From an uncultured cyanobacterium (GTDB lineage: Bacteria > Cyanobacteriota > Cyanobacteriia > PCC-9006 > JAAUQQ01): a stretch of DNA of 64,000 nucleotides. Where the stretch lies: the NCBI GenBank assembly GCA_963718615.1, contig OY970368.1, forward strand, positions 3,104,001-3,168,000. The letters run 5' to 3'. This document shows, piece after piece, positions 7,717 through 62,370 of the stretch. Every line of letters starts with the position of its first letter. The first letter of the stretch is position 1. The notes under the pieces are model-generated. The model was given only the letters and a program-made list of their open reading frames with translations. It had not been told where the DNA came from and did not search any database. Both the position numbers and the translations under genes were made by a program.

Positions 7717-10146
7717 TTATATCTTCAAATACACCACCGTCACCCCCGTTCCCCCATCCGCCTGCTCCGCCGCCTCAAATCGCTCCACCTGGGGATGCTG
7801 CTTGAGAAAATCCTGCACCCCGCGCCGTAGCTTACCCGTGCCGTGGCCATGGATAATCCAAATGGGTCCTGCGGCCTCGGCAATAAACCGATCGACCTCG
7901 ATTTCCGCATCGCTCACCTTGCTGCCCCGCAGATCTAGCGTATTGCGGGAGGTTCGGATGGCGGGGGCTGCTGGGCGATCGCCCTCCTCCACCTTCGGGT
8001 CTGACCTAAAGGACTCCAGCACTTTGATCTTCGCCTTGGCCTCCGGCATCTGTCCCTTCTCTCCCTGGAGCGACTCCACATCCGCCAGGGTCACCATCAT
8101 TTTCATCAAACCAAACCGCACCTGTAACTCACCTTCCGGCGTCGCCACGGTCAAGACCTCTGCAACCTGCCCCCCCAGGCGAGGTAAACGCACCCGCTCA
8201 CCCACCTGGGGCTGATAGCCCGGTTTCGGTTTTCGTTTCTGTTGGGAAGGCAACTGGGCAGCGATCGCCTCCACTGCCTCCGTCGCCTGCTGTGCCCGCT
8301 TCGCCCGCTGCTGGGAATCCTGGGGACCCCTTTGGAGTTGCCGGATCACCTGGGCAATTTCGCCCTTAGCTTGGGCGATCGCCGCCTGGACCGCCTGTTC
8401 CTGCTGCGCCTTGAGTTCCTGCTCCCGCGCCTGTAGCTCCGCTGCTTTGCGAGACACTTGGGCATAGAACTTCTCTGCCTCTGCCACCAGCTTTGCCGCC
8501 TCCGCCGCCTTTTCTTCCTGGACTCGTCGCTGGGCTTCTAATCCTGCAATCACTTCATTGACTTCTGTGGAAGCTCCAGGGCTGACAAAATCGCGGGCGG
8601 ATTCGATGATGTCGGACTTGAGACCCAGACGCTGGGCGATCGCCAAGGCATTGGACCGTCCCGGAATTCCCCAGAGCAGTCGGTAGGTGGGCGAAAGCGT
8701 CTGGACATCAAATTCCACCGAGGCATTTTCAAACCGTTCATCGCTATATTTCAGCGCCTTGAGTTCGCCAAAGTGGGTGGTGGCGACGGTAAGACGGGTG
8801 GTATCGGCTAGGTGTTTGAGGAGGGCGATCGCCAAGGCGCTACCTTCAGAAGGATCGGTCCCCGCCCCCACTTCATCCAACAGCACAAGGGAGTTGGGGT
8901 GGTTTTCCAAGGCCTCCAGGATCCGCCCAATCCGTTTAATATGGCCGGAGAATGTGGACAAGCTCTGCTGGAGCGACTGTTCATCGCCAATATCCGCCAG
9001 GACTTGGTCAAACCAAGGCAGCTCGACCGGTTCGCGGGCCGGAACAAACAGACCTGCCTTCGCCATCAGAGCCGCGAGCCCCAAGGTTTTGAGCGTCACG
9101 GTTTTGCCCCCGGTATTGGGACCAGTAATCGCGACGACCCGCAGATTGGGGTCAATGCGTAGGTGGGTTGGAACAACGCCATTGCCTTGTTCGTGGCGCT
9201 CTTGCCAGATCAACAGCGGATGGCGCAACTCTCGCAGCGTCGTTGATTCTGGCGTTTCGCTGGCCAGAAAACGGGGCGGATTGCCTTCGAGCCAGTAGCT
9301 ATAGCGAGCACGGGCCGCCGCCAGATCAAGGGTCGTGGCAACGGCCAGCAGATGCTCCAAATCCTCTAGGACTTCGGCGATTTGCTCCGACAACCGGCGA
9401 CGCACCCGTTCTTCTTCAACCTGCTCTTGACGCAGCAACTGTCTAAGCTGATTGTTGCCATTCACCACGCTGCTGGGCTCAACGTAGAGGGTTGCGCCAC
9501 TCGATGAACTGTCGTGGACAATGCCGGGAATGACATCTTTGTGGGAGGCCTTGACCGGAATGACAAACCGGTTGTCCCGCTGGGTCACCACCGCCTCTTG
9601 AATGGCGCTGGCCTTGACCTGCATAATCCGCTGAAGTTTGCGATAGACTTCGTCCCGCTGGGATTTGAGCTTGGTTCGCAGGGCTCCAAGGGTTTCGCTG
9701 GCGCGATCGGTGACTTTGCCGCGATCGTCGATGCAGTGATGGATCTGCTGTTCTAGCTCTGGATAGGTCCGCAGGTCCGCCACTAGGCCCACGAGTGTGG
9801 GCAGGTCGTCCTCATGGGCATCAATGAGTCGACGGAGGTTGCGCACTCCGGCTAGGGTCGTCGCTACGGACAGCAACTCTTCGCCGGAGAGAATGCCCCC
9901 ATGGCCCGCCCGCTCTAGGGCAGCGCTAATGTCCTCGATGCCGTCAAAGGAAAGCGAGGGGGTCAGCCGAGACTCTAGGTCATAGATCTCGGTGGTTTGG
10001 GTGAGCAGATGTTCGCTTTCGGCTTGGGTTTGGGGGATGCGCAGTTGACCGGTGGCGATCGCCCCCAACTTTGTCGCCGCAAACGTAGCGACATGCTGGC
10101 ACAGACGCGGCCATTCGAGCAGGTTTAAGGTTTCGTCTTGAATCAC
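7717..10146 (-). CDS. mutS2: Endonuclease MutS2
   Basis: ITGPNTGGKT Walker A, QSLSTFSGH, LLDEVGAGTDP, C-terminal Smr domain (LDLRG...IIHGHGTG). Confidence 0.97.
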   Translation of the reverse strand: MIQDETLNLLEWPRLCQHVATFAATKLGAIATGQLRIPQTQAESEHLLTQTTEIYDLESRLTPSLSFDGIEDISAALERAGHGGILSGEELLSVATTLAGVRNLRRLIDAHEDDLPTLVGLVADLRTYPELEQQIHHCIDDRGKVTDRASETLGALRTKLKSQRDEVYRKLQRIMQVKASAIQEAVVTQRDNRFVIPVKASHKDVIPGIVHDSSSSGATLYVEPSSVVNGNNQLRQLLRQEQVEEERVRRRLSEQIAEVLEDLEHLLAVATTLDLAAARARYSYWLEGNPPRFLASETPESTTLRELRHPLLIWQERHEQGNGVVPTHLRIDPNLRVVAITGPNTGGKTVTLKTLGLAALMAKAGLFVPAREPVELPWFDQVLADIGDEQSLQQSLSTFSGHIKRIGRILEALENHPNSLVLLDEVGAGTDPSEGSALAIALLKHLADTTRLTVATTHFGELKALKYSDERFENASVEFDVQTLSPTYRLLWGIPGRSNALAIAQRLGLKSDIIESARDFVSPGASTEVNEVIAGLEAQRRVQEEKAAEAAKLVAEAEKFYAQVSRKAAELQAREQELKAQQEQAVQAAIAQAKGEIAQVIRQLQRGPQDSQQRAKRAQQATEAVEAIAAQLPSQQKRKPKPGYQPQVGERVRLPRLGGQVAEVLTVATPEGELQVRFGLMKMMVTLADVESLQGEKGQMPEAKAKIKVLESFRSDPKVEEGDRPAAPAIRTSRNTLDLRGSKVSDAEIEVDRFIAEAAGPIWIIHGHGTGKLRRGVQDFLKQHPQVERFEAAEQADGGTGVTVVYLKI

Positions 10147-10502
10147 GCGGGCTCGTAGAGGTATTCAAACCAGTTACCATCGGGGTCACGACCATAAAAC
10201 GAAGCCGTGCCATCGCGGTGTTCGTGGACTGGGGTGAGTTTAATTTCGGTTTGGCTGAGGCGTTCAAAGGCTTCATCCACGGCGGCTCGGTTGTCAAACA
10301 CAAAGCCAAAATGGGGACCGGCCTGGGCATAGCCGGGTCCCAAAAGTGCGAGGCCATCTTTGCCTGCTTTGAGATAGGCCCAGTCTGTATCTTTCCAAGC
10401 GAGCTCCAGGCCTAAGTCTTGGTAAAACTGGGCAGCCCGTTCGATATTTTCTACTTTGATGGCGACGTGGCCGAGTCGTTTGACCTGCATTTTGACCTGC
10501 AT
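10143..10502 (-). CDS. VOC/glyoxalase family protein
   Basis: LGHVAIKV...HFGF...FYGRDPDGNWFE. Confidence 0.9.
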   Translation of the reverse strand: MQVKMQVKRLGHVAIKVENIERAAQFYQDLGLELAWKDTDWAYLKAGKDGLALLGPGYAQAGPHFGFVFDNRAAVDEAFERLSQTEIKLTPVHEHRDGTASFYGRDPDGNWFEYLYEPA

Positions 10503-10617
10503 GATGTCGAAGCGTTATGGGCTGAGTATTGTGTGCTGAGTTGAGGATGAGGCTATGGGGTAGCCTTCTCTATTTTAGGGCTGCGGGTTTAGAGGTGCTG
10601 GTTTTGGGGCGCACAAT

Positions 10618-11388: not shown

Positions 11389-12222
11389 ATGACACTCTCG
11401 GAAAAACTGGCTCAAATCGATCGCCTCAAGGGCTGGCTCGATGCCTTTCGCCCACTCCCTGCGTCGGTCGTAGCGGAGTTGAAAGCCCTGTATGATGTGC
11501 GGTTTACGTACACCTCTAATGCGATCGAGGGAAACACGTTAACCCAAAGTGAGACTCAGCTTGTGTTGGAGCGGGGGATTACGGTGGGTGGGAAGAGTCT
11601 GACGGAGCATTTGGAGGTGGTTGGCCATAAGGAGGCGATCGACTATATCGAAGCCTTGGCACGGCAGGAGACAGCGATTGGAGAATGGGAGATTCGGCAA
11701 ATCCATAGTTTGATTCTGCGCAAGATTGCCCCAGAGGAAGCGGGCTGCTATCGACAGCTTGATGTCAGAGCAGCAGGAACGGAATATGTGTATCCGCCCC
11801 ATTATGCTGTGTCTGAGTTGATGGCGGAGTTTGTGGAATGGTTAGGGTCTGAAATGGTTCGGACGATGCATCCGGTTTGGCGCGCGACGGTGGCCCATGT
11901 AAAGTTTGTGTCGATTCATCCATTTCGGGAGGGTAATGGGCGAACAGGCCGGTTATTCATGAATTTGTTGCTGTTGCGATCGGGGTATCCGATTGTGGTG
12001 ATTAGCAATCGGGTTCGGCAGGCTTATATTGAGGCGTTGGTGGCAGCGCAGCAGGCTTCTGATTTGGAGCCGATGCTGGAGTTGGTTGCTAATGCGATGG
12101 AGGATGCGTTGATTGACCTGTTGCGGGGGGTGGCGACGGCGGGGGAGAGTCGCGGGAGGGGGTTGAGGTTTTATCGGGAGATGATGGAGATTTTGGATCA
12201 GGGGATGGGTTCGAATCCCTAG
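11389..12222 (+). CDS. Fic family protein (class II, N-terminal inhibitory helix)
   Basis: HPFREGNGRTGR Fic motif; SNAIEGN autoinhibitory motif; likely start ATG 11389. Confidence 0.92.
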   Translation: MTLSEKLAQIDRLKGWLDAFRPLPASVVAELKALYDVRFTYTSNAIEGNTLTQSETQLVLERGITVGGKSLTEHLEVVGHKEAIDYIEALARQETAIGEWEIRQIHSLILRKIAPEEAGCYRQLDVRAAGTEYVYPPHYAVSELMAEFVEWLGSEMVRTMHPVWRATVAHVKFVSIHPFREGNGRTGRLFMNLLLLRSGYPIVVISNRVRQAYIEALVAAQQASDLEPMLELVANAMEDALIDLLRGVATAGESRGRGLRFYREMMEILDQGMGSNP

Positions 12223-15200
12223 GATGTGATGAGGGCTTGGACTTCGTTGGCTTTTTCGGTGAGGTCTAGGTGTTGATAAAGGGCTAGGCTTTGGCTCAGG
12301 TATTGGCGGGCGGTTTGGGGGGCGTTGGGGTCGGTTTGGTTGGGATGTTGATAGATTTCGCCGAGGAGTTTGAGGGCGTCGGCTTGGTGTTTTTGGCGGT
12401 TGTAGGTTTGGAAGGTTTGGAGGGATTTTTGGGTGAGGGTGGTGGCTTGTGGGAGGTCTAGGAGGGCGGGGGTTTCGAGGTGGGCTCGGGCGATATCGAG
12501 GGTTTCTTCGGCGGCGATGAGGGTTTGGTTGAGGCTGGAGAAGAGGTTTAGGGCTTGGGTATAGCTGGTTTTGAATTGGCTGATGAGGGTTGGTGGGTTG
12601 GGGTCGTTGGGGGGGCGGTGGCGGAGTTGTTCGGCTTGGAGGAGGCTGAGGACGATGTGGTCGTAGGCGAGGTTTTCGGTGTATTGTTTTTGGGTGTTGA
12701 TTTGGAGGGCTTGTTGGAGGTTTTGTTGGGCTTGGGTGAGTTGGATGAGGGCGGTGTTTGGGTCGGGGGTTTGGTGGGCTTGTTGGCGTTGGGTGTTGGC
12801 GAGGCGTCTGAGTTGGCGGGCGAGGTTTTCTGAGTGGTCGAGTTTTTTATAGATGTCGTAACTTTGTTGATGATACTGGGCTGCTGTATCGTATTGTTTT
12901 TGTGCGGAGTAGATACTCCCTTGCTGTCGATACGAATCGGCAATGTCTAGCTTCTCGTCTAGCTTTTGACGAAGAGCCAAGTCTTGTTGTGCTGCTTCCA
13001 AAGCTTGCTCATACTTACCCCAGTCTCGATAGCTATCCGATATCCAATACCACTGGTTAGCAACCTTAGAATCTTTTCCTAACTGCTGATAGAGATCTCG
13101 GCTTTGGATGTATTGAGTGATCGCCTCTCCATACTTACTCCAGGCTTGATAGATTCTTCCCAATTGCCAATAAACAGCAGCAATTTCAGAAGAATCATCC
13201 AGCCGTTGACGAATCGCTAACTCCTGCTGCTGTGCTTCTAAGGCTTGCTCATACTTACCCCAATCTCGATAGCAAACTGATATCCGATACCACTGGTTAG
13301 CAACATCAGAATCTTTGCTTAACTGCTGATAAAGGTCTCGGCTTTGGATGTAGTGGCCGATCGCCTCTTCATACTTACTCCAGGCTTGATAGATTCTTCC
13401 CAATTGCCAATAAACAGCAGCAATTTCAGAAGAATCATCCAGCCGTTGACGAATCGCTAACTCCTGCTGCTGTGCTTCTAAGGCTTGCTCATACTTACCC
13501 CAATCTCGATAGCTATCCGATATCCAATACCACTGATTAGCAACATTAGAATCTTTGCCTAATTGCTGATAGAGATCTCGGCTTTGGATGTGGTGGGCGA
13601 TCGCCTCTTCATACTTGCTCCAGGATTGATAGATTCTTCCCAATCGCCAATAAGCAAGGGCAATTCCAGAGGAATCATCCAGCCGTTGACGAATCGCTAA
13701 ATCCTGCTGCTGTGCTTCTAAGGCTTGCTCATACTTACCCCAATCTCGATAGCTATCCGATATCCAATACCACTGATTAGCAACATTAGAATCTTTGCCT
13801 AATTGCTGATAGAGATCTCGGCTTTGGATGTGGTGGGCGATCGCCTCTTCATACTTACTCCAGGCTTGATAGATTCTTCCCAAGGCATAGTAAGCTCTAG
13901 CAACTCCAGAAGAATCATCTAGACTTTGATGAATCGCTAGATATCGCTGCATTGCTTCCAAAGCTTGCTCATACCTACCCCAGTCTCGATAGCTATCTGA
14001 TATCCAATACCACTGAGTAGCAACATTAGAATCTTTGCCTAACTGCTGATAGAGGTCTCGACTTTGGGTGTGGTGGGCGATCGCCTCTTCATACTTGCTC
14101 CACGCTTGGTAGATTCTTCCTAATCGCCAATAAGCAGTAGCAACCCCAGATGAATCATCCAGCCGCTGACGAATTGCTAACTCCTGCTGTGCTTCTAAGG
14201 CTTGCTCATACTTGCCCCAGTCTCGATAGCTATCCGATATCCAACCCCACATATTAGCAACATCAGAGTCTTTGCCTAACTGCTCATAGAGGTCTCGGCT
14301 TTGGATGTAGTGGCCGATCGCCTCTTCATACTTACTCCACTCTTGGTAGATTCTTCCCAATCGCAAATAAGCAAGGGCAACTCCAGAAGGAATCATCCAG
14401 CCGTTGACGAATCGCTGAATCCTGCTGCTCTGCTTCCAATGCTTGCTCATACTTACCCCAGTCTCGATAGCTATCCGATATCCAACCCCACATATTAGCA
14501 ACATCAGAGTCTTTGCCTAACTGCTCATAGAGGTCTCGGCTTTGAGTGTGGTGGGCGATCGCCTCTTCATACTTGCTCCAGGCTTGATAGATTTTTCCCA
14601 AGGCATAGTAAGCTCCAGCAACCCCAGAAGAATTATCTAGACTTTGACGAATCGCTAAACATTGCTGCCTTGTTTCCACAGCCTGCTCATACTTACCCCA
14701 ATCTCGATAGCAATCTGATATCCAAGCCCACTGATTCGCAACATTAGAATCTTTGCCTAATTGCTGATAGAGGTCTCGACTTTGGGTGTGGTGGGCGATC
14801 GCTTCTTCATACTTGCTCCACTCTTGGTAGATTCTTCCCAATCGCCAATAAGCAGTAGCAATTCCAGAAGGAATCATCCAGCCGTTGACGAATTGCTAAT
14901 TCTTGCTGCTGTGCATCCAATGCTTGCTCATACTTACCCCAGTCTCGATAGCAATCTGATATCCAATACCACTGATTAGCAACATTAGAATCTTTGCCTA
15001 ATTGCTGATAGAGGTCTCGACTTTGGGTGTGGTGGGCGATCGCCTCTTCATACTTGCTCCAGGCTTGATAGATTTGTCCAATTTGTCGATAAACACTAGC
15101 AATTTCAGAAGAATCATCCAGCCGTTGACGAATTGCTAACTCCTGCTGCTGTGCATCCAATGCTTGCTCATACTTACCCCAGTCTCGATAGCTATCCGAT

Positions 15201-18200
15201 ATCAAACACCACAGGTTAGCAACATTAGAATCTTTGCCTAATTGCTGATAGAGGTCTCGACTTTGGGTGTGGTAAGCGATTGCCTCTTCATACTTACTCC
15301 AGGCTTGATAGATTCTTCCCAATCGCCAATAAGCAGTAGCAATTCCAGAAGGAGTCTTCCAGCCGTTGACGAATTGCTAACTCCTGCTGCTGTGCATCCA
15401 ATGCTTGCTCATACTTACCCCAGTCTCGATAGCTATCCGATATCAAACACCACAGGTTAGCAACATTAGAATCTTTGCCTAATTGCTGATAGAGGTCTCG
15501 ACTTTGGGTGTGGTAAGCGATTGCCTCTTCATACTTACTCCAGGCTTGATAGATTCTTCCCAATCGCCAATAAGCAGTAGCAATTCCAGAAGGAGTCTTC
15601 CAGCCGTTGACGAATTGCTAACTCCTGCTGTTCTGCTTCCAAAGCTTGCTCATACTTGCCCCAGTCTCGATAACTATCCGATATCCAATACCAGAGATCT
15701 GCAACATTAGAGTCTTTGCCTAACTGCTGATAGAGGTCTCGACTTTGGGTGTAGTGGGCGATCGCCTCTTCATACTTATTCCAGGCTTGATAGATGCTTC
15801 CCAATTGCCAATAAGCAGTAGCAATTCCAGAGGAGTCTTCCAGCCGTTGACGAATTGCTAAATCCTGCTGTTCTGCTTCCAAAGCTTGCTCATACTTACC
15901 CCAATCTCGATAGCAAGCTGATATCCAACCCCATAGATTAGCAACATCAGAATCTTTGCCTAACTGCTGATAGAGGTCTCGACTTTGGGTGTGGTGGGCG
16001 ATCGCTTCTTCATACTTGCTCCAGGCTTGATAGATTTGTCCAATTTGTCGATAAACACTAGCAATTTCAGAAGAATCATCCAGCCGTTGACGAATTGCTA
16101 ATTCTTGCTGCTGTGCATCCAATGCTTGCTCATACTTACCCCAGTCTCGATAGCTATCTGATATCCAATACCACTGGTTAGCAACATTAGAATCTTTGCC
16201 TAATTGCTGGTAGAGGTCTCGACTTTGGGTGTAGTGGGTGACTGCCTCTTCATACTTACTCCAGGCTTGATAGCTTCGGGCAAGGTGCCAAAAGAGATAA
16301 GCCTCAGCCTTAAGGTTCTGAGCTTGTTGAGCAATAGCAATAGCCTGCTGAAAGCACTGTAGGGATTCTGCGTATCTACCATGAGATCTGTAACAAACAC
16401 CCCGATATCTCCATAAAATTAACTGCTCAGCAGAATCCGAATCAACATTCAATTTATCCGAACATTGCTGATAATATTGCAAGCCTTGATCATAATCATC
16501 TTTCTTCTCATAGGCAATCGCAATTGCCCACTCTACAAATCCACCAAAATAGCAATTATCCTCATCCACCAGCAATTCCAACCGCTCCAGCGCCCGATCA
16601 TAATGATCTGCCCTCAAATACGATAGGGAGGCTACAAACACCAAGCATCGACGATCATCAGAATCAAAATACCCTAAATCTAATGCTCGCTCCAGCACCG
16701 GGCTCATCTCCGCACCCAATTCTGCCATCAAGTCTCGTATATCACCAAACAATGAAGGCGTAAGGTGCTGCATAACCTCCACAACTCGTTCTGCCAACAA
16801 TTCTTCCGAATTACCACAAGCCACATACAACATCGCTACCCAAGCTCGGTTCCGCTGCTCAGTCGAAAGCTGTCGGTTCTCCACCGCCTGCTGCAATCGC
16901 CCCCAAACCTGATGATTAAAAGCTTCAATCCCCCGCAATCGCTGCAAGAGTTGCTTAACGGGCTCTTTACTAAATCCCTCATCTAACCCCAAATAAGTCA
17001 ACACCAACCTGTCAACCTGCCTAGCACAAAACGTTGACAACACCCGCACTTCAGCCAATATCTGTCCCACAAACAGCAAATCTTGCCACAGCCCCTCCGA
17101 CTCCCGTATCGCACTTTCTGATTGCGAATACCACAATAGAATCGGATTATCGCTCCCAGAATTCTGAAGGCGAATCTCTTGCCCTAAAATATTCGGCTGA
17201 TACTCTGATAAATTACGAAATAACTGCTCCAAAAGGCGATTGGTTCGTTTCTGGTCAGCACTTAAATACCCGAGCGCCAACAAAATCGGCTCATTCCACC
17301 GGGCCTGATTGCGATAGGGACCAATAATCTCCAAAATTTCACTAATCTCATTATCCGCAATCTGCCGAGCCGCAAAATACTCCTCAAACGTCAGATGCAT
17401 AAACCCATACATCTCCGGAGCCCGCTCCACAAATAGCCCCGTCGTCTCCCGCACCTTCCGCAAAAACTGCCGCACTAACTCCAGCGCAGCCTGCTCATCC
17501 ACCCCCTGCAATTCCATCATGTGCGGCGTCAGCCATCGCTCAACCTCCCCCTGGGCCACAATCCCCGAAGGCTTCTCCTCATGCATCCGCAGCGCCAGCG
17601 GAGCCAAAAGCGCCGTTACCTCTTCCTCCACCAACATCAACTGCCGATGTCTAGCCTGATAAGGAATATTGCGGCCAAGCTGCCAATCCTCAATCAACGT
17701 CTTTGCCGCCAATTGATAGAGCTCCACCCGACGCTGGGGCAACCGCGTACCATTGCGATGGATCAGCGCCAAAATCGTCAAAAGCAAAGGATTCGCTGCA
17801 AATCGCCTCACCCCTTGATTGCTCGAAATTTCCTGCACAATCTCTTGGGCTTCCCGATCCGCATCCCGCTGTTGTCGCTCCGCCTCAACCTCTGGCCGCT
17901 GCGCGATTTCGACCGCCAAACACCAACGCCTCAGGAATTGCTCAATCTGTTCATCCCCCATGGGCGTAATCGTAAATTCTCGAAACCGGCTTCCCAACGC
18001 AGCCTGCTTGTACCCCGCAATCCGACTTGTAACCACAAACTTGTTATTACGATACTCATCAACCAATCGATTAATGTGTTGAACAACCTGCACCCGATTG
18101 TCTTGATCAAACACCTCATCCAATCCATCCAGCAAAACCAAACAATCCCCTGTCGCCATTCGGTTCAGCAGCAGATTCGCCACAGAATCCCCATCCGTAG

Positions 18201-26966: not shown

Positions 26967-28163
26967 ATGACCGTGCATCTTTTCCATTCGCTCTTGCCTG
27001 TCCCCGCTGGCATCCCCCAGGTTGCGGCGCTAGCCTTAGACGCTACTCCGGTAGAGTTTTCGCTAATTATCCCAACCTACAATGAGCGAGAAAATCTGCC
27101 CCAACTCCTAGCGGAGCTAGTGGCGCTGCTGGAGTCTGTGGTTCCGGGGGATTATGAAATCATTGTGGTGGACGACAATAGCCCCGATCGCACCTGGGAA
27201 CTTGCTCTGGACTTGATGAGCCAATATCCTCAGCTCTGGGTCATGCGACGACAGCGAGAACAGGGACTTGCCAGTGCGGTAGTCCGGGGCTGGCAAGTCT
27301 CACGGGGGAAGATTCTCGGCGTCATTGATGCGGATTTACAGCATCCTCCCCAAACCCTCTTGCCTCTGCTTCAGCAGATCCAAGGGGGGGCCGATTTGGC
27401 GATCGCCAGCCGTCACATCGAAGGGGGGGGCGTGAGCAACTGGAGTTTTAGTCGCCGATTTCTCTCGCGGGGGGCACAAATTCTGGGGCTGATCCTTTTA
27501 CCGGGGGTCGTGGGTCGTGTGTCGGATCCCATGAGTGGTTTCTTTTTGGTGCGCAGAGGGGCGATCGCCCATTCTCCGCTCTATCCCCACAGCTACAAAA
27601 TTTTGCTAGAGGTTCTCGCCCGAGGTCAGGCTGGTGCCATTGCGGAGGTGGGATATATCTTTCGATCGCGCCACCAGGGCCAGAGCAAAGTCAGTCTACG
27701 TCAATACAGTGATTATCTTCTCCATCTTTTGCGGCTGCGGCTGAGCCTCTTTCCAGGGCAGCGATTTTTGCGCTTTGGCTTGGTTGGGCTGAGCGGTGTC
27801 TGTGTGGATATGGCGCTTTTCTATGGCCTCAGCAGTACCGCTGGATTAGGCTGGGGGCTGAGCCTTAGCAAGATTTTGGCCGCAGAAGCCGCCATGGTTA
27901 ACAATTTTATTTGGAACGATGCTTGGACGTTTCGAGACTTGAGTAGCCATCAACGGGGCTGGCGGAAACGAGGCCAACGGTTTTTGAAGTTTAACTTGGT
28001 CTGTGGTCTGGGCTTGGTCTTGAATGTGTTGATTTTGAATTTACTGGTTCATACGATTTTGCCCCACAAGTATCTGGCGAATTTGGTGGCGATCGCCCTC
28101 ACCACGGTCTGGAATTTCTGGATTAATTTCAAACTCAGTTGGCGAGTGACGGATACCCATTAG
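26967..28163 (+). CDS. GT2 polyprenol-phosphate glycosyltransferase fused to a GtrA-like domain
   Basis: IIPTYNERENL, VVDDNSPD, DADLQH, DPMSGFF; C-terminal RFGLVG...NNFIWNDAWTF...WNFWIN. Confidence 0.92.
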   Translation: MTVHLFHSLLPVPAGIPQVAALALDATPVEFSLIIPTYNERENLPQLLAELVALLESVVPGDYEIIVVDDNSPDRTWELALDLMSQYPQLWVMRRQREQGLASAVVRGWQVSRGKILGVIDADLQHPPQTLLPLLQQIQGGADLAIASRHIEGGGVSNWSFSRRFLSRGAQILGLILLPGVVGRVSDPMSGFFLVRRGAIAHSPLYPHSYKILLEVLARGQAGAIAEVGYIFRSRHQGQSKVSLRQYSDYLLHLLRLRLSLFPGQRFLRFGLVGLSGVCVDMALFYGLSSTAGLGWGLSLSKILAAEAAMVNNFIWNDAWTFRDLSSHQRGWRKRGQRFLKFNLVCGLGLVLNVLILNLLVHTILPHKYLANLVAIALTTVWNFWINFKLSWRVTDTH

Positions 28164-28183
28164 ACTTCTTGGCTGATCAATGC

Positions 28184-28255
28184 CTAGGTCCTTAACCCGA
28201 AGCTGTCAGCCTGGGTTGGGTTGAGGCGTTTACGAGGTTTGGGAGAATGGTTCAC
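28184..28255 (-). pseudogene. Possible 5' remnant of an integron integrase gene
   Basis: Divergent from the attI-like site; reads MNHSPKPRKRLNP, three single-base changes from the P-R-K-L-L-D-Q start typical of IntI; stops after 23 aa. Confidence 0.35.
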
Positions 28256-28345
28256 GGAAATTACGGAGCGTTCTGCCGAATTGCCAGTATGGGTGTATTA
28301 GGCAGAATTCTGGCAACGCACGCACAGGAGCAATTAAGGTCCGTT

Positions 28346-28563
28346 TTGCCTAAGGCTCTACTGGGGGATCTGATGTGCGGTTTGAATCGGCCTAACGCTA
28401 TAATCTGGGGAGTTAAGCTGACGGATTTCGGTATAACACTCTATATTCGAGGTGTTAAGCGGAATTGAATCGGCATAACATCCGGATTTGGGTGGATAGG
28501 CGAAACACAATTCGGTATAACACCCCTAAAGGGGTGAATAGGCTAACTCAGTTCAGCCTAAAC
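28346..28563 (+). repeat. ~42-bp phased degenerate direct-repeat array upstream of the attI-like site
   Basis: CGGCCTAAC 28388, CGGTATAAC 28429, CGGCATAAC 28471, CGGTATAAC 28513, CAGCCTAAAC 28554; weaker TTGCCTAAG 28346. Confidence 0.75.
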
Positions 28564-28574
28564 AATAGTTATCT
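28554..28574 (+). mobile_element. attI-like integron recombination site (crossover G/TTATCT at 28568)
   Basis: cagcctaaacaataGTTATCT resembles attI1 GCCCTAAAACAAAG/TT; GTTATCT is the exact reverse complement of AGATAAC at the end of cassette 1. Confidence 0.65.
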
Positions 28575-28600
28575 AGTAAATCTCTTGTTGATATACACTT

Positions 28601-29716
28601 ATGTCACATTCATTTCGCGATATCCAGGGCATCATTGATGATCTCAATCGGTCGCGCTCAGTGTACAAGAGCTTCACGGATCAGATTCTGTCATCGACAT
28701 CAGGCATTAACGCGATTCAAGAGTCTCTAGCCGCCCAAAGAGCACTTGACCGTAGCCTTCTCGCATCAGCGACATCAGCTCTCGCCACAGTAAATCTCCC
28801 CGATTACACAAGTAACATTCGCGATCTAGTTTCCGCTAACAAGACACTGACCGACATTGTCTCACAGGCGTCAATTGCCGACTCAGCGATGTCTAAGATT
28901 TTTGCTGAGCACAACGTACTGCGAAAATCATTGGCTTCAATCGCCTCTCTTCGTTCGACAACCGAGCCTTTGGCATCATTTGATACCAGTCGCTTACTCT
29001 ACACTTCGCTCAGCAGTCAGGTTCGGCTTCTTGACTTGGAGACGCATTCTTTCGGGAACTTAATTGGCGCAACAAATTTATTTACCAATGACCTCGCGGC
29101 GACATTCAGTAAACTTACCAGTTCGTATCGCGATGTGATCGAGTCTATCCCAAAGATTTCCAAGCAGTTAGTTCCGTTTGTTGCAACGTATGCACCGATT
29201 GAATACGCCCTTGAACTTGATGTCATTGAAGGTATTACAGTTGAAGACGACGAAGCTCAAGACCTCGAACCGCTACCGTCAGTTGACGACGAACTGGCAT
29301 CATTTGATGAACGTCTTCTCGCTCTTCTGAAAGGTGCAAGACAGTCGTTGGATTCAGATAACCCAGAAAAGGCTCGTCACGTTACAACGTCGGTTCGTGA
29401 GTTTTTTACTCATATTCTTCACGAACTCGCCCCCGACCACGAAATAAACCAATGGACAACTGACGCCTCTTATTATCACAACGGTCGCCCGACACGTCGT
29501 ACACGCTTGCTCTTCATCTGCCGAACTTTCTCGTGCGATCCCCTTACAAAGTTCATCGAACATGATGTTCAGGCTGCGCTCACTCTGGTAGATTCGCTCA
29601 ATGCTGGTACACACGCGATCGAGTCCAAGCTCACGCAACCTCAACTTCAGGCAATCGTATATCGCATGGAATCTCTAGCGTTATTCCTGCTCAAAGTATC
29701 ACGAGGTGGTGGTTAA
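28601..29716 (+). CDS. Integron cassette ORF 1: helical N-terminus plus C-terminal HEPN-like predicted nuclease (resembles pPIWI-associating nuclease domain)
   Basis: GARQSL..DNPEKARH...SVRE....ILHELAPD...GRPTRRTRL...LNAGTH motif set; no HIP1 sites. Confidence 0.6.
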   Translation: MSHSFRDIQGIIDDLNRSRSVYKSFTDQILSSTSGINAIQESLAAQRALDRSLLASATSALATVNLPDYTSNIRDLVSANKTLTDIVSQASIADSAMSKIFAEHNVLRKSLASIASLRSTTEPLASFDTSRLLYTSLSSQVRLLDLETHSFGNLIGATNLFTNDLAATFSKLTSSYRDVIESIPKISKQLVPFVATYAPIEYALELDVIEGITVEDDEAQDLEPLPSVDDELASFDERLLALLKGARQSLDSDNPEKARHVTTSVREFFTHILHELAPDHEINQWTTDASYYHNGRPTRRTRLLFICRTFSCDPLTKFIEHDVQAALTLVDSLNAGTHAIESKLTQPQLQAIVYRMESLALFLLKVSRGGG

Positions 29717-29726
29717 TGGGTTGGTC

Positions 29727-29818
29727 AGATAACAAACGCCCATGCACACCGACCGCCGAGAGTTGATCGGTTATGATTCAGAGGTTGTCTGCGGCGGGTG
29801 ATGGGCACCGTTTTAGGC
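29727..29818 (+). mobile_element. attC-like site
   Basis: R'' AGATAAC (29727), L'' GCCCATgCAC pairing with L' GTGATGGGC with one extra G, R' GTT(TT)AGGC (29810); lies 10 nt after the cassette 1 stop. Confidence 0.7.
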
Positions 29819-29828
29819 GTTCACGCGT

Positions 29829-30164
29829 ATGAAACCACAATACCATCGTCATAGTTGTCCGAACTGCGGCCATCGGGTTAGTTGGTCGCGCCTGCATCTG
29901 CGCGCATGGATTTGGGCTCGGTGGCGATGCGAGTCTTGTAGCAGTGAGTTACGTTTCGATTCTGGTAGGCGTTGGTTATACGCAGGCTTGTCTGCTCTGT
30001 GGTTTATTTTTCTTGTCGCATTAGTCAGGCAGTATGTGGATTTATGGGTGTGTGGCGTTCTTGTTTTTGTCGGTGTCATTGCGATATCCCGATTGGAGCG
30101 CATTCGACTTGTTCGGGAGTCCCACCACACAGCAGATTTGTATGCACGACCAAAGGACACCTAA
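29829..30164 (+). CDS. Integron cassette ORF 2: Zn-ribbon (CxxC...CxxC) two-TM membrane protein
   Basis: CPNCG...RCESC followed by two hydrophobic helices; stop codon lies inside an R''-type ACCTAAC. Confidence 0.65.
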   Translation: MKPQYHRHSCPNCGHRVSWSRLHLRAWIWARWRCESCSSELRFDSGRRWLYAGLSALWFIFLVALVRQYVDLWVCGVLVFVGVIAISRLERIRLVRESHHTADLYARPKDT

Positions 30165-30174
30165 CCAGAGCGCT

Positions 30175-30453
30175 TCTGCAATTCTCTCGGCAACTTCATC
30201 ATTCGATTCTTTCACCTCAAATGCTCGATGCGCCTGCTTGAGAAATTCATTCTTCCAGCGGCACAGCACTGACATATGGACTTTGTGGGCTCGTCTTGCT
30301 TCTGTTGGCAAACGCTGACCACTCAGCAGTTCCAGCACCACTTTTGCCTTGAACTCGCTGCTATAATTTCTTTGCTTTTTGTCATGACCTCTTTCCCTCC
30401 TGGACTTCAGCTTACTCTCTCTACCCTCTGTCCAGTTTGAGGGGGTCACTTCA
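30175..30453 (-). mobile_element. IS3-family remnant (left inverted repeat plus frameshifted, truncated orfA)
   Basis: Minus strand starts TGAAGTGACCCCCTCAAACTGGACA; orfA-like RNYSSEFKAKVVLELL...LCRWK...ERIAE; ATG at 30385 is out of frame; no orfB. Confidence 0.8.
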
Positions 30454-30612
30454 AAATGACTATCTTTGCATGATTCTCCACAGTGCCATGGCAAACCCAG
30501 AGGTTGCTCACACAGCTCATCTATGAAATCCGATTATTCTCTCGATTACAGTCATGCGCGATCCCTGCAAAAAGATGAGCCTAGCGCATGACTTTAGCCT
30601 GAGCATCTGCTT

Positions 30613-30645
30613 CGTTGGGTTTCGTTGCACTCAACACCAACCTAC
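30613..30645 (-). repeat. GTAG-type REP-like palindrome
   Basis: Minus strand GTAGGTTGGtGTTGAGTGCAACGAAACCCAACG, similar to GTAGGTTGGG...GAAACCCAAC repeats common in cyanobacteria. Confidence 0.55.
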
Positions 30646-30744
30646 GGATTTTTCTTTCTGTGCCAACGCAGACGTAATTTCTCTGACCAAAACCGCTAGG
30701 CGAGTGACATAAAAGTACTACTGCCAGCGCAGCGGAGACTTGTC

Positions 30745-30945
30745 ATGAGAAACCAACTCACTCTTGAAATCATCCGCGCCATCCTGCACCATGCCGAAGA
30801 ACACAGCCGCCTCGCCAAAAGCCACTACAATGCTTCCCTGGTCATTGCCTTCCTCTGCGTTCAATTCATTAACAACGCCGGAAAACAACTCCAGTCCGCC
30901 AGCCAGCAACTCAACCAAACCCTGGACAATTTAGACCAAAAATAA
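30745..30945 (+). CDS. Small hypothetical protein, possibly a shortened TRADD-N-associated membrane-type protein
   Basis: GGAG RBS; EHSRLAKSHYNASLVIAFLCVQF resembles the ERLRQAxxSFNxAL family pattern. Confidence 0.35.
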   Translation: MRNQLTLEIIRAILHHAEEHSRLAKSHYNASLVIAFLCVQFINNAGKQLQSASQQLNQTLDNLDQK

Positions 30946-30983
30946 CCCGCCTTCAGCCCCGTGCCTCAGTTCACAATCTCCCC

Positions 30984-31907
30984 CTAATCAAAATACTCAT
31001 CCAGAAAAAACGTCCCTTCCCCATCCAGATTATTCATGCAGAACGGCGCGTTTTTGCCATTCCAAGGCTTCTTTCCATTGGGCTTCGTCACCACAATCTG
31101 CCCATCGCTACCGCCAGCAGCATCGATATAATAGGCCGCCAATGCCTCACATTGCTCATGGGTTAAGGCCGGATTATTCGTATCCGCCTGAATCACCTTG
31201 CCATCAAAGATCTTTTCCTCGCTCAAACGATGGGGAGGCAGATTGGCAATGGTGAGCATCGGCGTATCGGCAGAGAGGAAAGCCGCCGCTGGGATAGCAG
31301 TAGCAGGGGGGGGCGCGACCGCTGAGGCAGAAACAGGTGTTGAGGAAGCAGATGTTGAGGCAGGAGTTGAGTGAGCAGAAGAGGCCATGGGCGCAGGCGC
31401 TTTGGGGGAGAGGCTGAGCAAAATTGCGCCGACGGTGACCACGATCGCCACAAACGCCGCACTACTCTTCCAGGTATAGACAAACCGCCTCGGAACTGTG
31501 GACTTAGGGGCTGCGGACTGGCGCAGAACAATTTGCCCCGTCCAACTGGGGAGGGTCGCCTGGGCACGATAGCCCCGCACCTGAATCGCCCTAATCTGAG
31601 CCAAATTTTGTGCCAAATTGAGATTGTGGCAAAAGCGTTTCATCCAAGCCAACAGCTCAGCCTTCGGTGGGGTCAGACGGCTGCTGAGATCGACCAGCAA
31701 AATCGAGCCCCGGCGCTGGACCCGCACCTGAATGCCTTTGGCTCGGAGGGAGCGGGCCATGAGGGTCGCGATCGCCCGAGGATGGTTAGGCTTAGCCGGT
31801 TTCTTCACCGGTCTTTTCGCCAGTTTCATAGCTGGTTTCACAGCCAGTTTCTTCGCCGATTGCAGGGCCGGTTTCATGGAGGCTCGCCTCGTGGTGGACA
31901 GACTCAT
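30984..31907 (-). CDS. Hypothetical single-TM protein with basic K/P/A N-terminus, Ser/Ala/Pro linker and small Cys-containing C-terminal domain
   Basis: 307-aa ORF; AKKLAVKPAMKLAKRPVKKP; TM AFVAIVVTVGAILLSL. Confidence 0.65.
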   Translation of the reverse strand: MSLSTTRRASMKPALQSAKKLAVKPAMKLAKRPVKKPAKPNHPRAIATLMARSLRAKGIQVRVQRRGSILLVDLSSRLTPPKAELLAWMKRFCHNLNLAQNLAQIRAIQVRGYRAQATLPSWTGQIVLRQSAAPKSTVPRRFVYTWKSSAAFVAIVVTVGAILLSLSPKAPAPMASSAHSTPASTSASSTPVSASAVAPPPATAIPAAAFLSADTPMLTIANLPPHRLSEEKIFDGKVIQADTNNPALTHEQCEALAAYYIDAAGGSDGQIVVTKPNGKKPWNGKNAPFCMNNLDGEGTFFLDEYFD

Positions 31908-32046
31908 CGCGTTGCTTCCCCGAGCTGAATCGAGCTTATTCTGCCATAGGTTATCTCAGCTTGGGATCGGGATAATGCCATTGGGGGGAGGTGTCTGTCA
32001 CCGGTAATATTGCTATGAACGTAAAAATTGTTCCCTATTGTTGGCG

Positions 32047-50024: not shown

Positions 50025-50993
50025 ATGGCGATCGCCCCTCCCTCCGTTTCTTCTGCTCCTGCTTCTGCATCCTCTTCCGCAACGCCTGCACCCTATGCCT
50101 TGCACCATTGGACCTGGCGAGGCTACCAAATTCAGTACGCCGTCGCCGGAACCGGAACGCCGCTGGTCTTGATCCATGGTTTTGGAGCATCGATTGGCCA
50201 TTGGAAGAAAAATATTCCCGTCTGGGCTGCTGCGGGCTACCAGGTCTTTACGCTGGATCTGCTGGGGTTTGGGGCCTCCGAAAAGCCCTTGACGGACTAC
50301 AGCCTAGAACTTTGGGAGGACCTGCTGGCAGAGTTTTCAGCAGAGTTGATTGGCCAACCGGCGGTCTTCATTGGCAACTCCATTGGTGCGCTACTCAGTT
50401 TGATGATGGCGGTGAATCATCCCGACCAAGTCAGCGGCATCATTTTGCTTAACTGCGCTGGGGGACTCAGCCATCGCCCCGAGGAACTGCCCCCACCGCT
50501 GCGGGTTGTCATGGGAACCTTTAACACACTGGTAAATTCCAATCAGTTGGGTCCGCTGATGTTCAATTTGGTGCGCCGCAAACCCCAGATTCGTCGGGCA
50601 TTACAACAGGTGTATCGTAAACCTGGCTCCGTTACCGATGAGCTGGTGGACATGCTCTACGAACCCTCCTGCGACCCCAATGCCCAAAGCGTCTTCGCTT
50701 CGATCCTGACCGCTCCCCCCGGACCAACCATCGAAACTCTCTTGCCGAAACTGGAAAAACCGATGCTCGTGCTCTGGGGCGAAGATGACCCCTGGACGCC
50801 GGTTAAGGGCAGCCAAATTTTCCAAGACCGTGCCCAAGACCATGCTCAAAACCGCAACACGACGTTTATTTCCCTACCCCGCACTGGCCATTGTCCCCAC
50901 GACGAGCGGCCCGAGCTGGTAAATCCACTGATCTTGTATTGGCTCAAAACCATAACATCAACCCGACAAGTGTCGGAATCCCACTGGGGGTAG
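50025..50993 (+). CDS. Alpha/beta fold hydrolase
   Basis: LIHGFGAS, DLLGFGAS, GNSIG nucleophile elbow, WGEDD, GHCPHDE. Confidence 0.93.
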   Translation: MAIAPPSVSSAPASASSSATPAPYALHHWTWRGYQIQYAVAGTGTPLVLIHGFGASIGHWKKNIPVWAAAGYQVFTLDLLGFGASEKPLTDYSLELWEDLLAEFSAELIGQPAVFIGNSIGALLSLMMAVNHPDQVSGIILLNCAGGLSHRPEELPPPLRVVMGTFNTLVNSNQLGPLMFNLVRRKPQIRRALQQVYRKPGSVTDELVDMLYEPSCDPNAQSVFASILTAPPGPTIETLLPKLEKPMLVLWGEDDPWTPVKGSQIFQDRAQDHAQNRNTTFISLPRTGHCPHDERPELVNPLILYWLKTITSTRQVSESHWG

Positions 50994-51600
50994 AAATTCT
51001 GGAATTTACGGAGGAACGATGCAAAGCCCTGATTAGGAAGGACTATTTGTCTTTGTGCAGTTTCTTCTTTACACGACATTGAAGTAGATATCCGTGAACC
51101 CCTTAGACTAAGGGGAACGTGCCCCCTGTAATCTTAATATCGTCGTTAATATCTGTTGGATATAGATAAAGATACGAGAGTGCAATAAATTCTCGATATT
51201 TGAGTCCGATAATTTTCTCTTGGGAATGGGAACAATAGAGTCAGCTCACGATAAGTAGCAATTAATCAAGGAAGTCGAGCAGGAGACAATCGAGTCGTGA
51301 CCTAGTCGTGGCCTAGATGATACTTTCTGCTGTCAGACGTTTCCTCACAGTCTACCTATCGTTGTACGGGTGCTACTCTATCGAATCTTCGCTAAAAATC
51401 ATAGAGGTCTCACTTTGTCAATAGCTGAAGGACTGCACCGAAAACGAGGGGCTATCTTCCTCCTGCCAAATCCGCAGTAACGTCTATCTTGTATTAGAGA
51501 TGGCTTAGTGCTTGTCTAGTTCTGTATTTATTGCAGTTGCTCGATTTCTCTAAGCCACAGCTTGTGTAGGTTCTTTCTGTGTAGGAGCACACCAACTGAA

Positions 51601-52728
51601 ATGGACATCTGTATAGTGAGTGGCATCTTCCCGCCAGATATTGGAGGGCCAGCCAGCTACGTTCCTAAAATCGCTAATACATTAATTGAACAAGGGCACA
51701 GCGCTGAAATAGTTTGTCTCAGCGATTCACTAGCGCATGATGATTTGAATGACTATCCCTTCAAGGTAACAAGAATTCAGCGTTCTTTACCAAAATATAG
51801 GCGTAGTATTGAAATAATCCATGCTATTTGCAGAAGCGCTAAAAACGCAAATCTTATATACGTAAACGGTCTAAGTCTAGAATCAATGATTGCCGCTCTA
51901 ATTTCCAAGAAGCCAACTATTCATAAGGTTGTTGGAGACTATGCGTGGGAAAGAGCACAGCTCTGGCGGCATTTTACTGGCACATTAGATGAATATCAGA
52001 CAACAAAGAAGAATTTAAAATTGAAGGTTCTAGACTTTATCAGGACAGCACCACTCAGAAAGTCACACTCAATTATTGTCCCAAGCAAATACCTTAAAAA
52101 AATAGTTATTGGATGGGGCATTAGTTCAAAAAAACTAAGAGTTATCTATAATGCTATCGACATTCCAAATCCTCAAACAGATTTGATTTTTCCAAAGGTA
52201 TCTGGGAAAGCGATTGTAACGGTAGGAAGATTGGTTCCTTGGAAAGGTGTGGATGGAATTTTAAACGTTCTATCTCAGATCAAAGATTGCCATCTTGTTA
52301 TCATAGGTGAAGGTCCTCTCCGTAATGAACTAGAAATTCTGTGCCATAAACTTAATCTGGAAGATCGAGTAACATTTATGGGGGCTCTTTCAAAATCTCA
52401 AGTTACTTACTGCTTAGAGAAAGCTGATTTATTCGTTCTTAATTCTACCTATGAAGGTCTACCTCATGTTGTGCTTGAGGCTATGAAAGCTGGGACTCCT
52501 GTAGTTGCTACTGATGCAGGAGGGACCTCAGAGGTTATACAAGATCGTGAGAATGGACTATTAGTGTCCGTAGGAAATGAAGAGAAACTTAAGGAATGCA
52601 TTCAGAAGATACTTGCAGAACCTAAGTACGCTCAACAGCTAGCTAATCAAGCTTATAATGATGTGAATGAAAAATTCTCATTAGAGAATATGTTGAAGGA
52701 GTCAATACAAGTATTTTCCCAAGTATAG
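51601..52728 (+). CDS. GT4 glycosyltransferase
   Basis: FPPDIGGPA, VGRLVPWKG, EGLPHVVLEAM. Confidence 0.92.
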   Translation: MDICIVSGIFPPDIGGPASYVPKIANTLIEQGHSAEIVCLSDSLAHDDLNDYPFKVTRIQRSLPKYRRSIEIIHAICRSAKNANLIYVNGLSLESMIAALISKKPTIHKVVGDYAWERAQLWRHFTGTLDEYQTTKKNLKLKVLDFIRTAPLRKSHSIIVPSKYLKKIVIGWGISSKKLRVIYNAIDIPNPQTDLIFPKVSGKAIVTVGRLVPWKGVDGILNVLSQIKDCHLVIIGEGPLRNELEILCHKLNLEDRVTFMGALSKSQVTYCLEKADLFVLNSTYEGLPHVVLEAMKAGTPVVATDAGGTSEVIQDRENGLLVSVGNEEKLKECIQKILAEPKYAQQLANQAYNDVNEKFSLENMLKESIQVFSQV

Positions 52729-52755
52729 CAACTACAAAGTAGGACTACAGCAGCA

Positions 52756-53319
52756 ATGATAAGTCAAAGCATTTCAGAGAATCAACTCTCTGTGAAAGAT
52801 ATTTCTTTTCAAAAGTTTCTAGGTGGTGTCCGAGGACTTATTAAGAAAGCTGAACTAAAAGACTGTGGATTTCCTGTCGTTATTGGCAGAGGAGTAAAGT
52901 TTAGAGATAAAAGTAGCATACTACTTGGGAATAAAGTTCAAATCAAAGAAGGTACACAAATCCTCAATCGAGTCACACTAAAAGATGGAGTATTTATAGG
53001 TCGATTTTGTGACATAGGCTCAGATGTCACCATTGAGGAAAGAGCGACCTTAGCAGATTATGTCTGCATTTTAGGTGAAACACATCAACATGATGACTGT
53101 GGGCATAGAGCCGGTAAACTATATTCACTTGGGGACAAGGTTATTGGGAAAGGAGCTTGGATAGGATATCGAGCAATTATCCTTCCTCAAGTTCGATACA
53201 TCGGGAAGGGTGCAGTTGTAGGAGCAGGAGCAGTTGTCACTAAAGATGTCCCTGATGGAGCTATTGTGGTAGGCAACCCAGCAAAATTAATAAAAAATCG
53301 TACTGCAGCTCATCAATAA
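52756..53319 (+). CDS. Hexapeptide-repeat sugar O-acyltransferase
   Basis: IGKGAWIG...[12 protein letters not shown]....GNPAK. Confidence 0.9.
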
Positions 53320-53331
53320 GCGAGGAAGGCC

Positions 53332-54522: not shown

Positions 54523-54530
54523 AGAAAATC

Positions 54531-55613: not shown

Positions 55614-55737
55614 TTTTCGAACAATCCTGAACACGCTCAGTAATGCTTTCAGTCTCCGTATACTTATAATGAATCAAGTCTGATTTTTATCTACTATAAA
55701 AATCAGAAAGTTAAGTACATCAAAGTAATAGAAAGCC

Positions 55738-56418: not shown

Positions 56419-56584
56419 AAATCATCATTTTTCAACCAAGGAATGGAGTAGAAAGTTTGTCGGCCTGTCTCTTAAGATAGATAGCTATACTTAAGTAACA
56501 AGGCTTCCGTTGCTGTTTAGTTTCTAACTCATTCCATCACACAAGAATCCAGTAAGTTTTTATTATAATGAGATTTATTTTCTT

Positions 56585-57907: not shown

Positions 57908-57952
57908 GTTGCTAGTTGTCTCATAAATATTTAAGTTTGAAATCGTATAACC

Positions 57953-59335: not shown

Positions 59336-59383
59336 TCCTGATAGAAGTAATTCAATTTTTCATCTTGATTTTTTCATCCTGAC

Positions 59384-61061: not shown

Positions 61062-61080
61062 CTCTAATTCAGTCAAGAAA

Positions 61081-62295: not shown

Positions 62296-62370
62296 GCTCC
62301 ACTGGCTATCTATTCCTTTAGATGCCAGCAGAGCAAGAGTCATACTGAATTGTAGGGAATAATAATCATC

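Follow-up and report, generated by a model that had tools for sequence, protein, structure and literature searches.

We analysed a stretch of 64,000 nt from an uncultured cyanobacterium (hereafter the window; C1:3104001-3168000 of its genome, G000) and found that positions 28184-30454 are very probably a decayed chromosomal integron with two gene cassettes. The original prediction for this locus, made from the DNA letters, had proposed an integron that lost its integrase gene intI. That proposal is now backed by a family of related attC sites, by homology of the predicted attI region to sequence beside an integrase gene in a relative, by a dead stub of intI, and by homologues of the first cassette gene that are themselves flanked by attC-like sites. 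A complete integron consists of an intact tyrosine recombinase gene, intI, with the IntI-specific insertion, an attI site, and a cassette promoter, Pc, in the intI/attI region. At the window locus no intact intI lies beside the array: the integrase family TIGR02249 (NCBIfam) has no match in the window, in agreement with the predicted absence of an integrase, and what is left of the gene is a dead 5' stub on the minus strand.

Sequence features of the locus

The boxes and frames on which the prediction had been built are present in the DNA (coordinates in Table 1). GTTATCT, which precedes open reading frame (ORF) 1, has its exact reverse complement, AGATAAC, after the ORF, and an imperfect palindrome with an extra G starts at the latter box, its unpaired extra bases (the G at 29744 and two A) being confined to the left arm. 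The second cassette was predicted from the pairing of its ends, and TTAGGCGT (29813-29820), set against the reverse complement of ACACCTAAC (30157-30165), is indeed complementary at seven of eight positions. Both ORFs are on the plus strand, ORF1 starting 33 nt and ORF2 19 nt past a GTT. Sites of HIP1 (GCGATCGC) number 72 in the window, where 1.2 are expected, and none falls between 28097 and 31767, a gap of 3.7 kb that covers both ORFs. The GC content is 0.45-0.53 over 28200-31000 versus 0.55-0.60 in the flanks. The low GC content, the missing HIP1 sites and the rarity of ORF1 and ORF2 in cyanobacteria (see below) are signs of foreignness.

Taken in isolation, the seven-base match between the two boxes is within chance, as it is equalled in 74 of 500 shuffles under a lenient scan that accepts any GTT up to 60 nt upstream and any AAC up to 45 nt downstream. 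The match is meaningful because both boxes fall at independently defined positions, namely the point at which homology of the attI region stops and the R'' box of a covariance-model match.

The palindrome is a member of an attC family

Used as an nhmmer query, the palindrome (29720-29830) retrieved 16 copies from the genome. In their alignment the left end reads xxTAAC and the right end GTTAG or GTTAT, with a conserved imperfect palindrome in between and a variable centre. A covariance model built from the 16 copies (R1) detects 23 sites in the genome at E <= 1.6e-4, and in the 64-kb window, with filters off, its sole match is the palindrome after ORF1 (91.3 bits). When the window copy was left out and the model rebuilt from the other 15 copies (R2), the sole match in the window was again this site (29726-29819, 78.1 bits, E 1e-21). 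The palindrome is thus an attC site of a family that recurs across the genome.

The family alignment has the structure of an attC site, which IntI recombines as a folded single strand. The L helix comprises 16 pairs, about 90% paired, and 8 of the 16 show compensatory changes. Covariation, computed with and without the window copy, is 0.319-0.331, compared with 0.141-0.156 in shuffles (none of 500 as high) and 0.06-0.11 in slid controls. The unpaired columns 18, 22 and 26 are found on the R''/L'' arm only; all 16 copies have column 18, and five lack column 22. The core consensus of attC sites is RYYYAAC for R'' and GTTRRRY for R'. In the window site (AGATAAC and GTTTTAG) the AAC and GTT stand at the right model positions, and the other letters depart from that consensus.

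The distribution of the family also follows the remains of integrases. The genome encodes one intact intI and carries intI fragments at four more loci, and near each of these four, at a distance of 1.3-3.8 kb, attC family members lie on the cassette side with the expected divergent orientation (Table 1). Beyond this genome, the attC core recurs with 75-94% identity in 16 of the 30 other cyanobacterial genomes searched. In the six of these that were examined, conservation of the core extends at least as far as the GT of the R' box, past which the flanks differ (the box begins GTT in five of the six, GTC in one). A search of 27000-32000 against Rfam at E <= 10 gave two chance-level matches, neither of them to the palindrome or the repeat array upstream of ORF1.

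In three attC copies of the genome (left ends at C1 2245208, 3845783 and 3853015) the R'' box is replaced by a left flank of about 25 nt that is C-rich and identical in all three, as though one element had inserted at each of these R'' boxes; in two of these stretches (L093 and L094 of G000) Rfam found no group II intron at its gathering threshold.

The attI region and the remains of intI

Upstream of ORF1, window positions 28223-28571 have a homologue in the relative G004 (contig C431, 10517-10864, plus strand), where the sequence abuts the start of an intI gene that is near-complete and frameshifted (9582-10522, minus strand, 353 bits). Relatives of this stretch are multi-copy in genomes of the same family. 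In a three-way alignment, the 317 nt of 28255-28571 are 73% identical to G004 and 76% identical to G001:C7, and identity falls to 25% or less from 28572, just past GTTA, the continuations at this break point being GTTATCT in the window, GTTAGCC in G004 and GTTAGGC in G001. By sequence comparison, the region therefore lies between intI and the first cassette and ends at a GTT crossover, as an attI site does, and the attI-like site of the original prediction is borne out by its homology to the intI-abutting sequence of G004, which ends at GTTA.

The attI region is built of repeated units. Its autocorrelation peaks at a lag of 42 (0.454), a value that none of 1,000 shuffles reaches at any lag of 5-99, and repeat finding returned direct repeats spaced 42 nt. 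Tandem Repeats Finder reported no array in 28100-28700; the 42-bp phase is seen by autocorrelation and repeat finding only. Core-like boxes, for which the patterns were picked after seeing the sequence, recur in one orientation at 28348, 28390, 28431, 28473, 28515 and 28556, and in the opposite orientation at 28412, 28454, 28495, 28537 and 28568. The 42-bp units may bind IntI.

At the outer end of the attI region, the minus strand from 28255 to 28184 translates to VNHSPKPRKRLNPTQADSFGLRT, followed by a stop codon. The first eight codons are identical to the N-terminus of the G004 IntI (VNHSPKPRRLLDQVRD), and the DNA of 28187-28254 is 69% identical (47/68) to the 5' coding region of the G004 intI. 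The end of the intI stub lies a few bases from where a neighbouring housekeeping-type glycosyltransferase gene (GT2) has its stop codon, and no insertion sequence (IS) is found there.

We searched the whole genome for integrases with TIGR02249, whose curated cut-off is 265 bits. One intI lies above it (C1:948656-949594, 443.8 bits), has no internal stop and is situated 2.2 Mb from the window; the four fragment loci are near 1907 kb, 3860 kb, 4646 kb and 4713 kb. From its sequence, the window stub appears to belong to the lineage of the G004-type IntI, unlike the intact intI of the genome. An ORF next to the intact intI also encodes 371 aa; it is unrelated to ORF1, and the agreement in length is a coincidence.

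Upstream of the intact intI (948 kb) lies a region that is similarly built of units and ends in GTTA, followed by a weak attC (16.2 bits, on the right strand); its similarity to the window attI is faint, the best segment being 33 nt at 82%. An attI profile located further attI-like copies in the genome at 2250 kb, 3238 kb, 3538 kb, 4665 kb, 4667 kb, 5026 kb and 5738 kb, all without an intI match beside them. Since most of these head attC family members on the same strand, the genome holds several integrase-less platforms.

Two further observations concern the sequences that follow attI sites. An identical first-cassette sequence stands after the attI of the intact intI (about 948470) and after the attI-like copy at 4665782, and this may reflect duplication or an exchange from one platform to another. 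In the G004 locus (L033), two group II intron domain V/VI matches (RF00029, 64 bits) at 11551-11633 and 15161-15243 are located inside the cassette array, on the cassette strand. The first of these elements appears to start directly after the attI GTTA, and a start sequence like it follows the attI-like copy of G000 at 3538721.

Homologues of cassette 1 in other bacteria

The boundaries of cassette 1 (1242 bp) were set by the homology break on the left and by the covariance-model match on the right. Its single gene, ORF1, encodes a protein of 371 aa whose residues 239-358 belong to the predicted nuclease domain family pP_pnuc_1 (PF18165, E 1.5e-27, 96.3 bits against a gathering cut-off of 26.3). 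ORF1 also matches the PADLOC model Aga_Nuclease, an Argonaute-associated nuclease, with an E value of 5.2e-12. These family matches suggest that the protein may act as a nuclease, and perhaps in defence. A predicted structure was of poor quality (mean pLDDT 60.4) and Foldseek returned nothing from the PDB at E <= 0.001.

ORF1 is single-copy in the genome and is detected in 3 of the 401 cyanobacterial genomes searched, its own included, and in none of seven from the same family. The protein collection contains 98 homologues, planctomycete proteins among them. A scan for related loci with ORF1 alone found no relative, while alignment-based scans did find relatives. We ran R1, with filters off, over 24 metagenome loci that encode ORF1 homologues and obtained 26 matches. 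All 22 matches at E <= 0.03 are on the strand of the ORF1 homologue; three minus-strand matches have E values of 0.44-0.93. A match starts within 40 nt past the homologue in 10 of the 24 loci and lies directly before or after it in 14. In Neorhodopirellula (L040), for example, the homologue ends at 4116 and the attC occupies 4123-4217, and the arrangement is the same in G029 (L037). Arrays also stand beside the ORF1 homologue in Mariniblastus, in a Planctomycetales metagenome-assembled genome and in Synechococcus sp. CS-1329.

The homologous cassettes share a further signature. Because the outer part of the R' box travels with the cassette, the start of a cassette complements its own R'' box, and in the homologous cassettes the opening bases (GTTACATGGC) match the reverse complement of the R'' box of the same cassette (GCCATGTAAC). 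The two agree at 10 of 10 positions in L063, L072 and L038, and at 9 of 10 in L065, L039 and L040. Ten homologous cassettes have a start box with a match of at least 7 of 10 positions; in eight of them it is placed 29-32 nt before the ATG, and in the other two 17 and 22 nt before it. In the window the distance is 33 nt. This start-box signature places the left boundary of the window cassette at the GTT of 28568. Judged by these sequence contexts, ORF1 is a travelling integron cassette.

Cassette 2 and the right border

The prediction of two cassettes held in part. Cassette 1 has a genuine attC and ORF2 of cassette 2 is intact; the attC of cassette 2 is missing, and an R''-like box, ACCTAAC, which contains the stop codon of ORF2, is all that is left of it. 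ORF2 scores 36 bits against TIGR04104, under the cut-off of 45, and its hydrophobic stretches may be membrane helices. The protein is very rare, with three homologues among 5.8 billion proteins, one of which (P0101) has the same C-terminus, and with no homologue in the 400 other cyanobacterial genomes searched (1 of 401 with its own).

Homology to an IS starts 15 nt past the R''-like box. The fragment shares 83-84% identity with the terminus of a 1275-bp IS that has six full copies in the genome; it reaches the natural end of that element at 30454, and the remainder of the element is deleted. Since the IS fragment starts right past the R''-like box, the attC of cassette 2 and anything beyond it have been lost. 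The IS end is abutted by a 113-nt repeat, which is 93-94% identical to 30445-30557 and 800324-800436 elsewhere in the genome.

ORF2 is fully overlapped by an antisense ORF of 103 aa (29849-30160, minus strand). One ORF2 homologue (P0100) continues in the frame of a separate window ORF (30034-30318, plus strand), and therefore either P0100 or the window is frameshifted near the C-terminus. Further right, in the low-GC border zone, a 66-aa ORF (30745-30945) matched no family of Pfam, PADLOC or NCBIfam.

Table 1. Features of the integron locus (window positions) and attC family members beside intI fragments elsewhere in the genome (C1 positions)
Feature	Position	Strand	Basis or remarks
intI 5' stub, dead	28184..28255	-	23 codons; N-terminus and DNA similarity to intI of G004:C431
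attI region	28256..28574	+	Homology to intI-abutting sequence in relatives; units of about 42 bp with alternately oriented core-like boxes
attI simple site	28556..28574		L-like GCCTAAA 28556-28562; R box GTTATCT 28568-28574; crossover G/TT at 28568/28569
Gene cassette 1, 1242 bp	28569..29810	+	From TT of the attI crossover to G of the attC R' box
ORF1, 371 aa	28601..29716	+	C-terminal predicted nuclease domain pP_pnuc_1; Pfam PF18165
attC of cassette 1	29727..29819	+	R'' AGATAAC 29727-29733; imperfect L''/L' palindrome; R' GTTTTAG 29810-29816
Cassette 2, 3'-truncated	29811..30165	+	Holds ORF2; ends in R''-like box ACCTAAC (30159-30165)
ORF2, 111 aa	29829..30164	+	CxxC...CxxC zinc ribbon, then hydrophobic stretches; NCBIfam TIGR04104
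IS terminal fragment, 274 nt	30181..30454	-	IS3-type OrfA (HTH_Tnp_1); Pfam PF01527, E 5.6e-6
Dispersed repeat, 113 nt	30455..30567		Abuts the IS end; right border zone of the low-GC islet
attC members	1908629, 1916858, 1919944, 1920966	+	Beside the (-) intI fragment at 1907 kb
attC members	3858281, 3852924, 3845693	-	Beside the (+) intI fragment at 3860 kb
attC member	4649904	+	Beside the intI fragment at 4646 kb
attC member	4717575	+	Beside the intI fragment at 4713 kb

Outside the integron locus, a second part of the window (50035-62558) has no HIP1 site over 12.5 kb. It encodes a polysaccharide-type cluster with five group-1 glycosyltransferases, two hexapeptide transferases, a methyltransferase and a Wzy_C polymerase/ligase-like protein, and is probably another horizontally acquired block.

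Weighing the evidence

Several results weigh against the interpretation as a decayed integron. The attC models derive from copies that were found by similarity to the window's own site. The bottom strand of the palindrome gave an unremarkable fold (-17.4 kcal/mol, z -1.61), with 14 of 200 shuffles equally good. In studied attC sites extrahelical G and T bases mark the recombined strand, and the unpaired bases here are C, T and T on the bottom strand. The R' box GTTTTAG is two T longer than the usual GTTAG or GTTAT of the family and off the general form GTTRRRY; one other copy in the genome (3236088) has the same TTTT in R', and the window attC may be crippled by this aberrant box. The second cassette is unsupported by either attC model, as neither R1 nor R2 matches anything after ORF2 in the 64-kb window. 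The stub of intI was assigned by a 68-nt DNA alignment and eight identical codons, and at the protein level it was detected neither by TIGR02249 nor by a tblastn search of the genome with the N-terminus of the G004 IntI. The 30 relatives compared include none of the same genus, and the one relative locus examined, G003:C104, shares the GT2 gene only, with no conserved neighbours. Finally, a promoter scan of the attI region returned two sigma-70-like matches on the plus strand (28281-28308 and 28418-28447) where 2.7 are expected, and in the combined promoter and terminator scan sites were no commoner than by chance.

The relic might still be a working platform on which the intact IntI encoded at 948 kb acts in trans, an alternative that the original prediction had named. 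Cassette 1 could then leave the locus and new cassettes could enter it, and a single integrase would serve several orphan attI platforms of the genome. We consider this unlikely. An IntI above the family cut-off and without an internal stop does exist in the genome, and attI-like copies followed by same-strand attC sites with no adjacent intI occur at 2250, 3238 and 5026 kb and at 4665-4667 kb (about 19 kb from an intI fragment). That the attI sites at 948 kb and at 4665782 are followed by the same first cassette likewise suggests platform exchange. Integrases show greater selectivity for attI than for attC, though, and the window attI resembles that of the intact intI only faintly, the stub represents the G004 lineage of IntI and differs from the intact gene, and the sole attC of the window has the aberrant R' box. 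Four sequencing runs, with no RNA run among them, each cover at most 0.07 of the sampled words, too little of the stretch to show excision joints. A broader version, in which the IntI at 948 kb serves a distributed integron of orphan platforms that includes the window, each platform is headed by a long attI of about a dozen phased core-like boxes that loads multiple integrases, and cassettes such as the pP_pnuc_1 one are still shuffled across platforms and across phyla (Cyanobacteria and Planctomycetota), is a speculative extension to which we give little credence.

It is also doubtful that an IS-mediated rearrangement brought the block of attI and cassettes here from another integron, with no decay in place. 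An IS fragment does form the right border of the block, the genome contains many integron fragments, and 38% of the attC clusters that have no integrase (CALIN) in the survey of Cury et al. have neighbouring IS (PMC4889954). The left border tells a different story: there no IS is seen, and a clean intI stub stands a few bases from a housekeeping-type gene's stop codon. The block has no second copy in the genome.

Insertion of a cassette by an integrase at a secondary GTT site (attG), in a place where an integron was never present, would yield the formal picture of a single attC site lacking an integrase (SALIN; 10.1101/2022.09.11.507474), as one complete attC with no integrase nearby is what the locus contains; this route is very improbable, being contradicted by the 317 nt upstream of the GTT that are homologous to the intI-adjacent region of the relative and by the intI stub itself. 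Hardly credible is the reading that takes the boxes for coincidence, the palindrome for a common dispersed repeat or a terminator and the array upstream for a miniature mobile element of no relation to it: palindrome and array are both multi-copy in the genome and its relatives, the fold energy is unremarkable and Rfam has no family for them, yet members of the palindrome family accompany each of the four intI wrecks, with side and strand as expected, their conserved core runs to the GT of the R' box (GTT in five of six other genomes), ORF1 homologues in other phyla are bracketed by matches of the same model, all on the gene strand, and the array abuts intI in G004.

A proposed history of the locus

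We therefore return to the decayed integron and propose an order of events for it. An integron integrase once encoded at the locus would have captured two promoterless gene cassettes through site-specific recombination between a folded bottom-strand attC and the double-stranded attI, at the G/TT of the R box. The ORF1 cassette would be the last inserted, because it adjoins attI. The cassette genes may be expressed now, or may formerly have been, from a putative promoter in the attI/intI region. A later deletion, reaching to where the adjacent glycosyltransferase gene has its stop codon, would have taken all of intI but some 70 nt at the 5' end. At the opposite border the array would have been cut short by insertion of an IS and then a deletion, with loss of cassette 2's attC and whatever lay past it. 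The order of these steps is inferred.

Relation to known integrons

Decayed chromosomal integrons of the Xanthomonas type have an inactivated intI and keep their cassettes. The window locus is likewise chromosomal, with a dead integrase and retained cassettes; unlike those integrons, it belongs to another phylum, its array is much shorter and its integrase is almost wholly deleted. The attI1 site of class 1 integrons consists of a simple L/R site and the accessory integrase-binding repeats DR1 and DR2, four sites in all. Similarly to attI1, the window attI has a simple site of L, spacer and R that ends in GTT at the crossover, with further core-like boxes before it. In contrast to the four sites of attI1, there are some 11-12 putative binding boxes here, in a strict 42-bp phase and in alternating orientation.

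A CALIN is defined as two or more attC sites within 4 kb without an intI, and the SALIN is its single-attC counterpart, for which an origin by insertion at a secondary genomic site has been proposed (10.1101/2022.09.11.507474). With one complete attC, the window locus is formally a SALIN and no CALIN. It resembles both classes in that a cassette with its attC has no intact integrase nearby, an IS adjoins it and an IntI is encoded elsewhere in the genome. It differs from most CALIN as described by Cury et al. (PMC4889954) in that its attI and intI stub are recognisable, so that an origin by loss of intI is directly visible; that survey notes that attI is unknown for most integrons. Ghaly et al. 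2021 (PMC8352920) provide a taxon-specific attC model for Cyanobacteria, and the window attC family is, like that set, conserved within Cyanobacteria.

Cassettes carrying defence genes have been reported from sedentary chromosomal integrons (Darracq et al., preprint 10.1101/2024.07.02.601686). Cassette 1 is comparable to these in being compact and single-gene, and its predicted nuclease domain is linked by PADLOC to Argonaute systems; unlike in those cases, neither an Argonaute partner nor a known defence system was recognised for ORF1. The main text of that preprint contains neither the word Argonaute nor the word cyanobacteria.

Integrons in Cyanobacteria, CALIN and SALIN, and intI pseudogenes beside some of them are already in print (PMC4889954; 10.1101/2022.09.11.507474), and integron decay by loss of the integrase is an ordinary, already described kind of event. 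The phased multi-site attI and the pP_pnuc_1 cassette may not have been described in detail, because full-text literature gave no paper for cyanobacterial integrons or pPIWI-associating nuclease under those phrases.

The locus is a worked example of cassettes without intI whose isolation goes back to loss of the integrase, an origin that is rarely demonstrable (intI pseudogenes were found near 15 of 279 CALIN; Cury et al. 2016, PMC4889954). It also illustrates how comparative break points define the attI of a cyanobacterial integron lineage, and the long, phased, many-site attI invites binding studies. The pP_pnuc_1 protein is an integron cassette common to Cyanobacteria and Planctomycetota, and it is a candidate single-gene cassette for defence or conflict.

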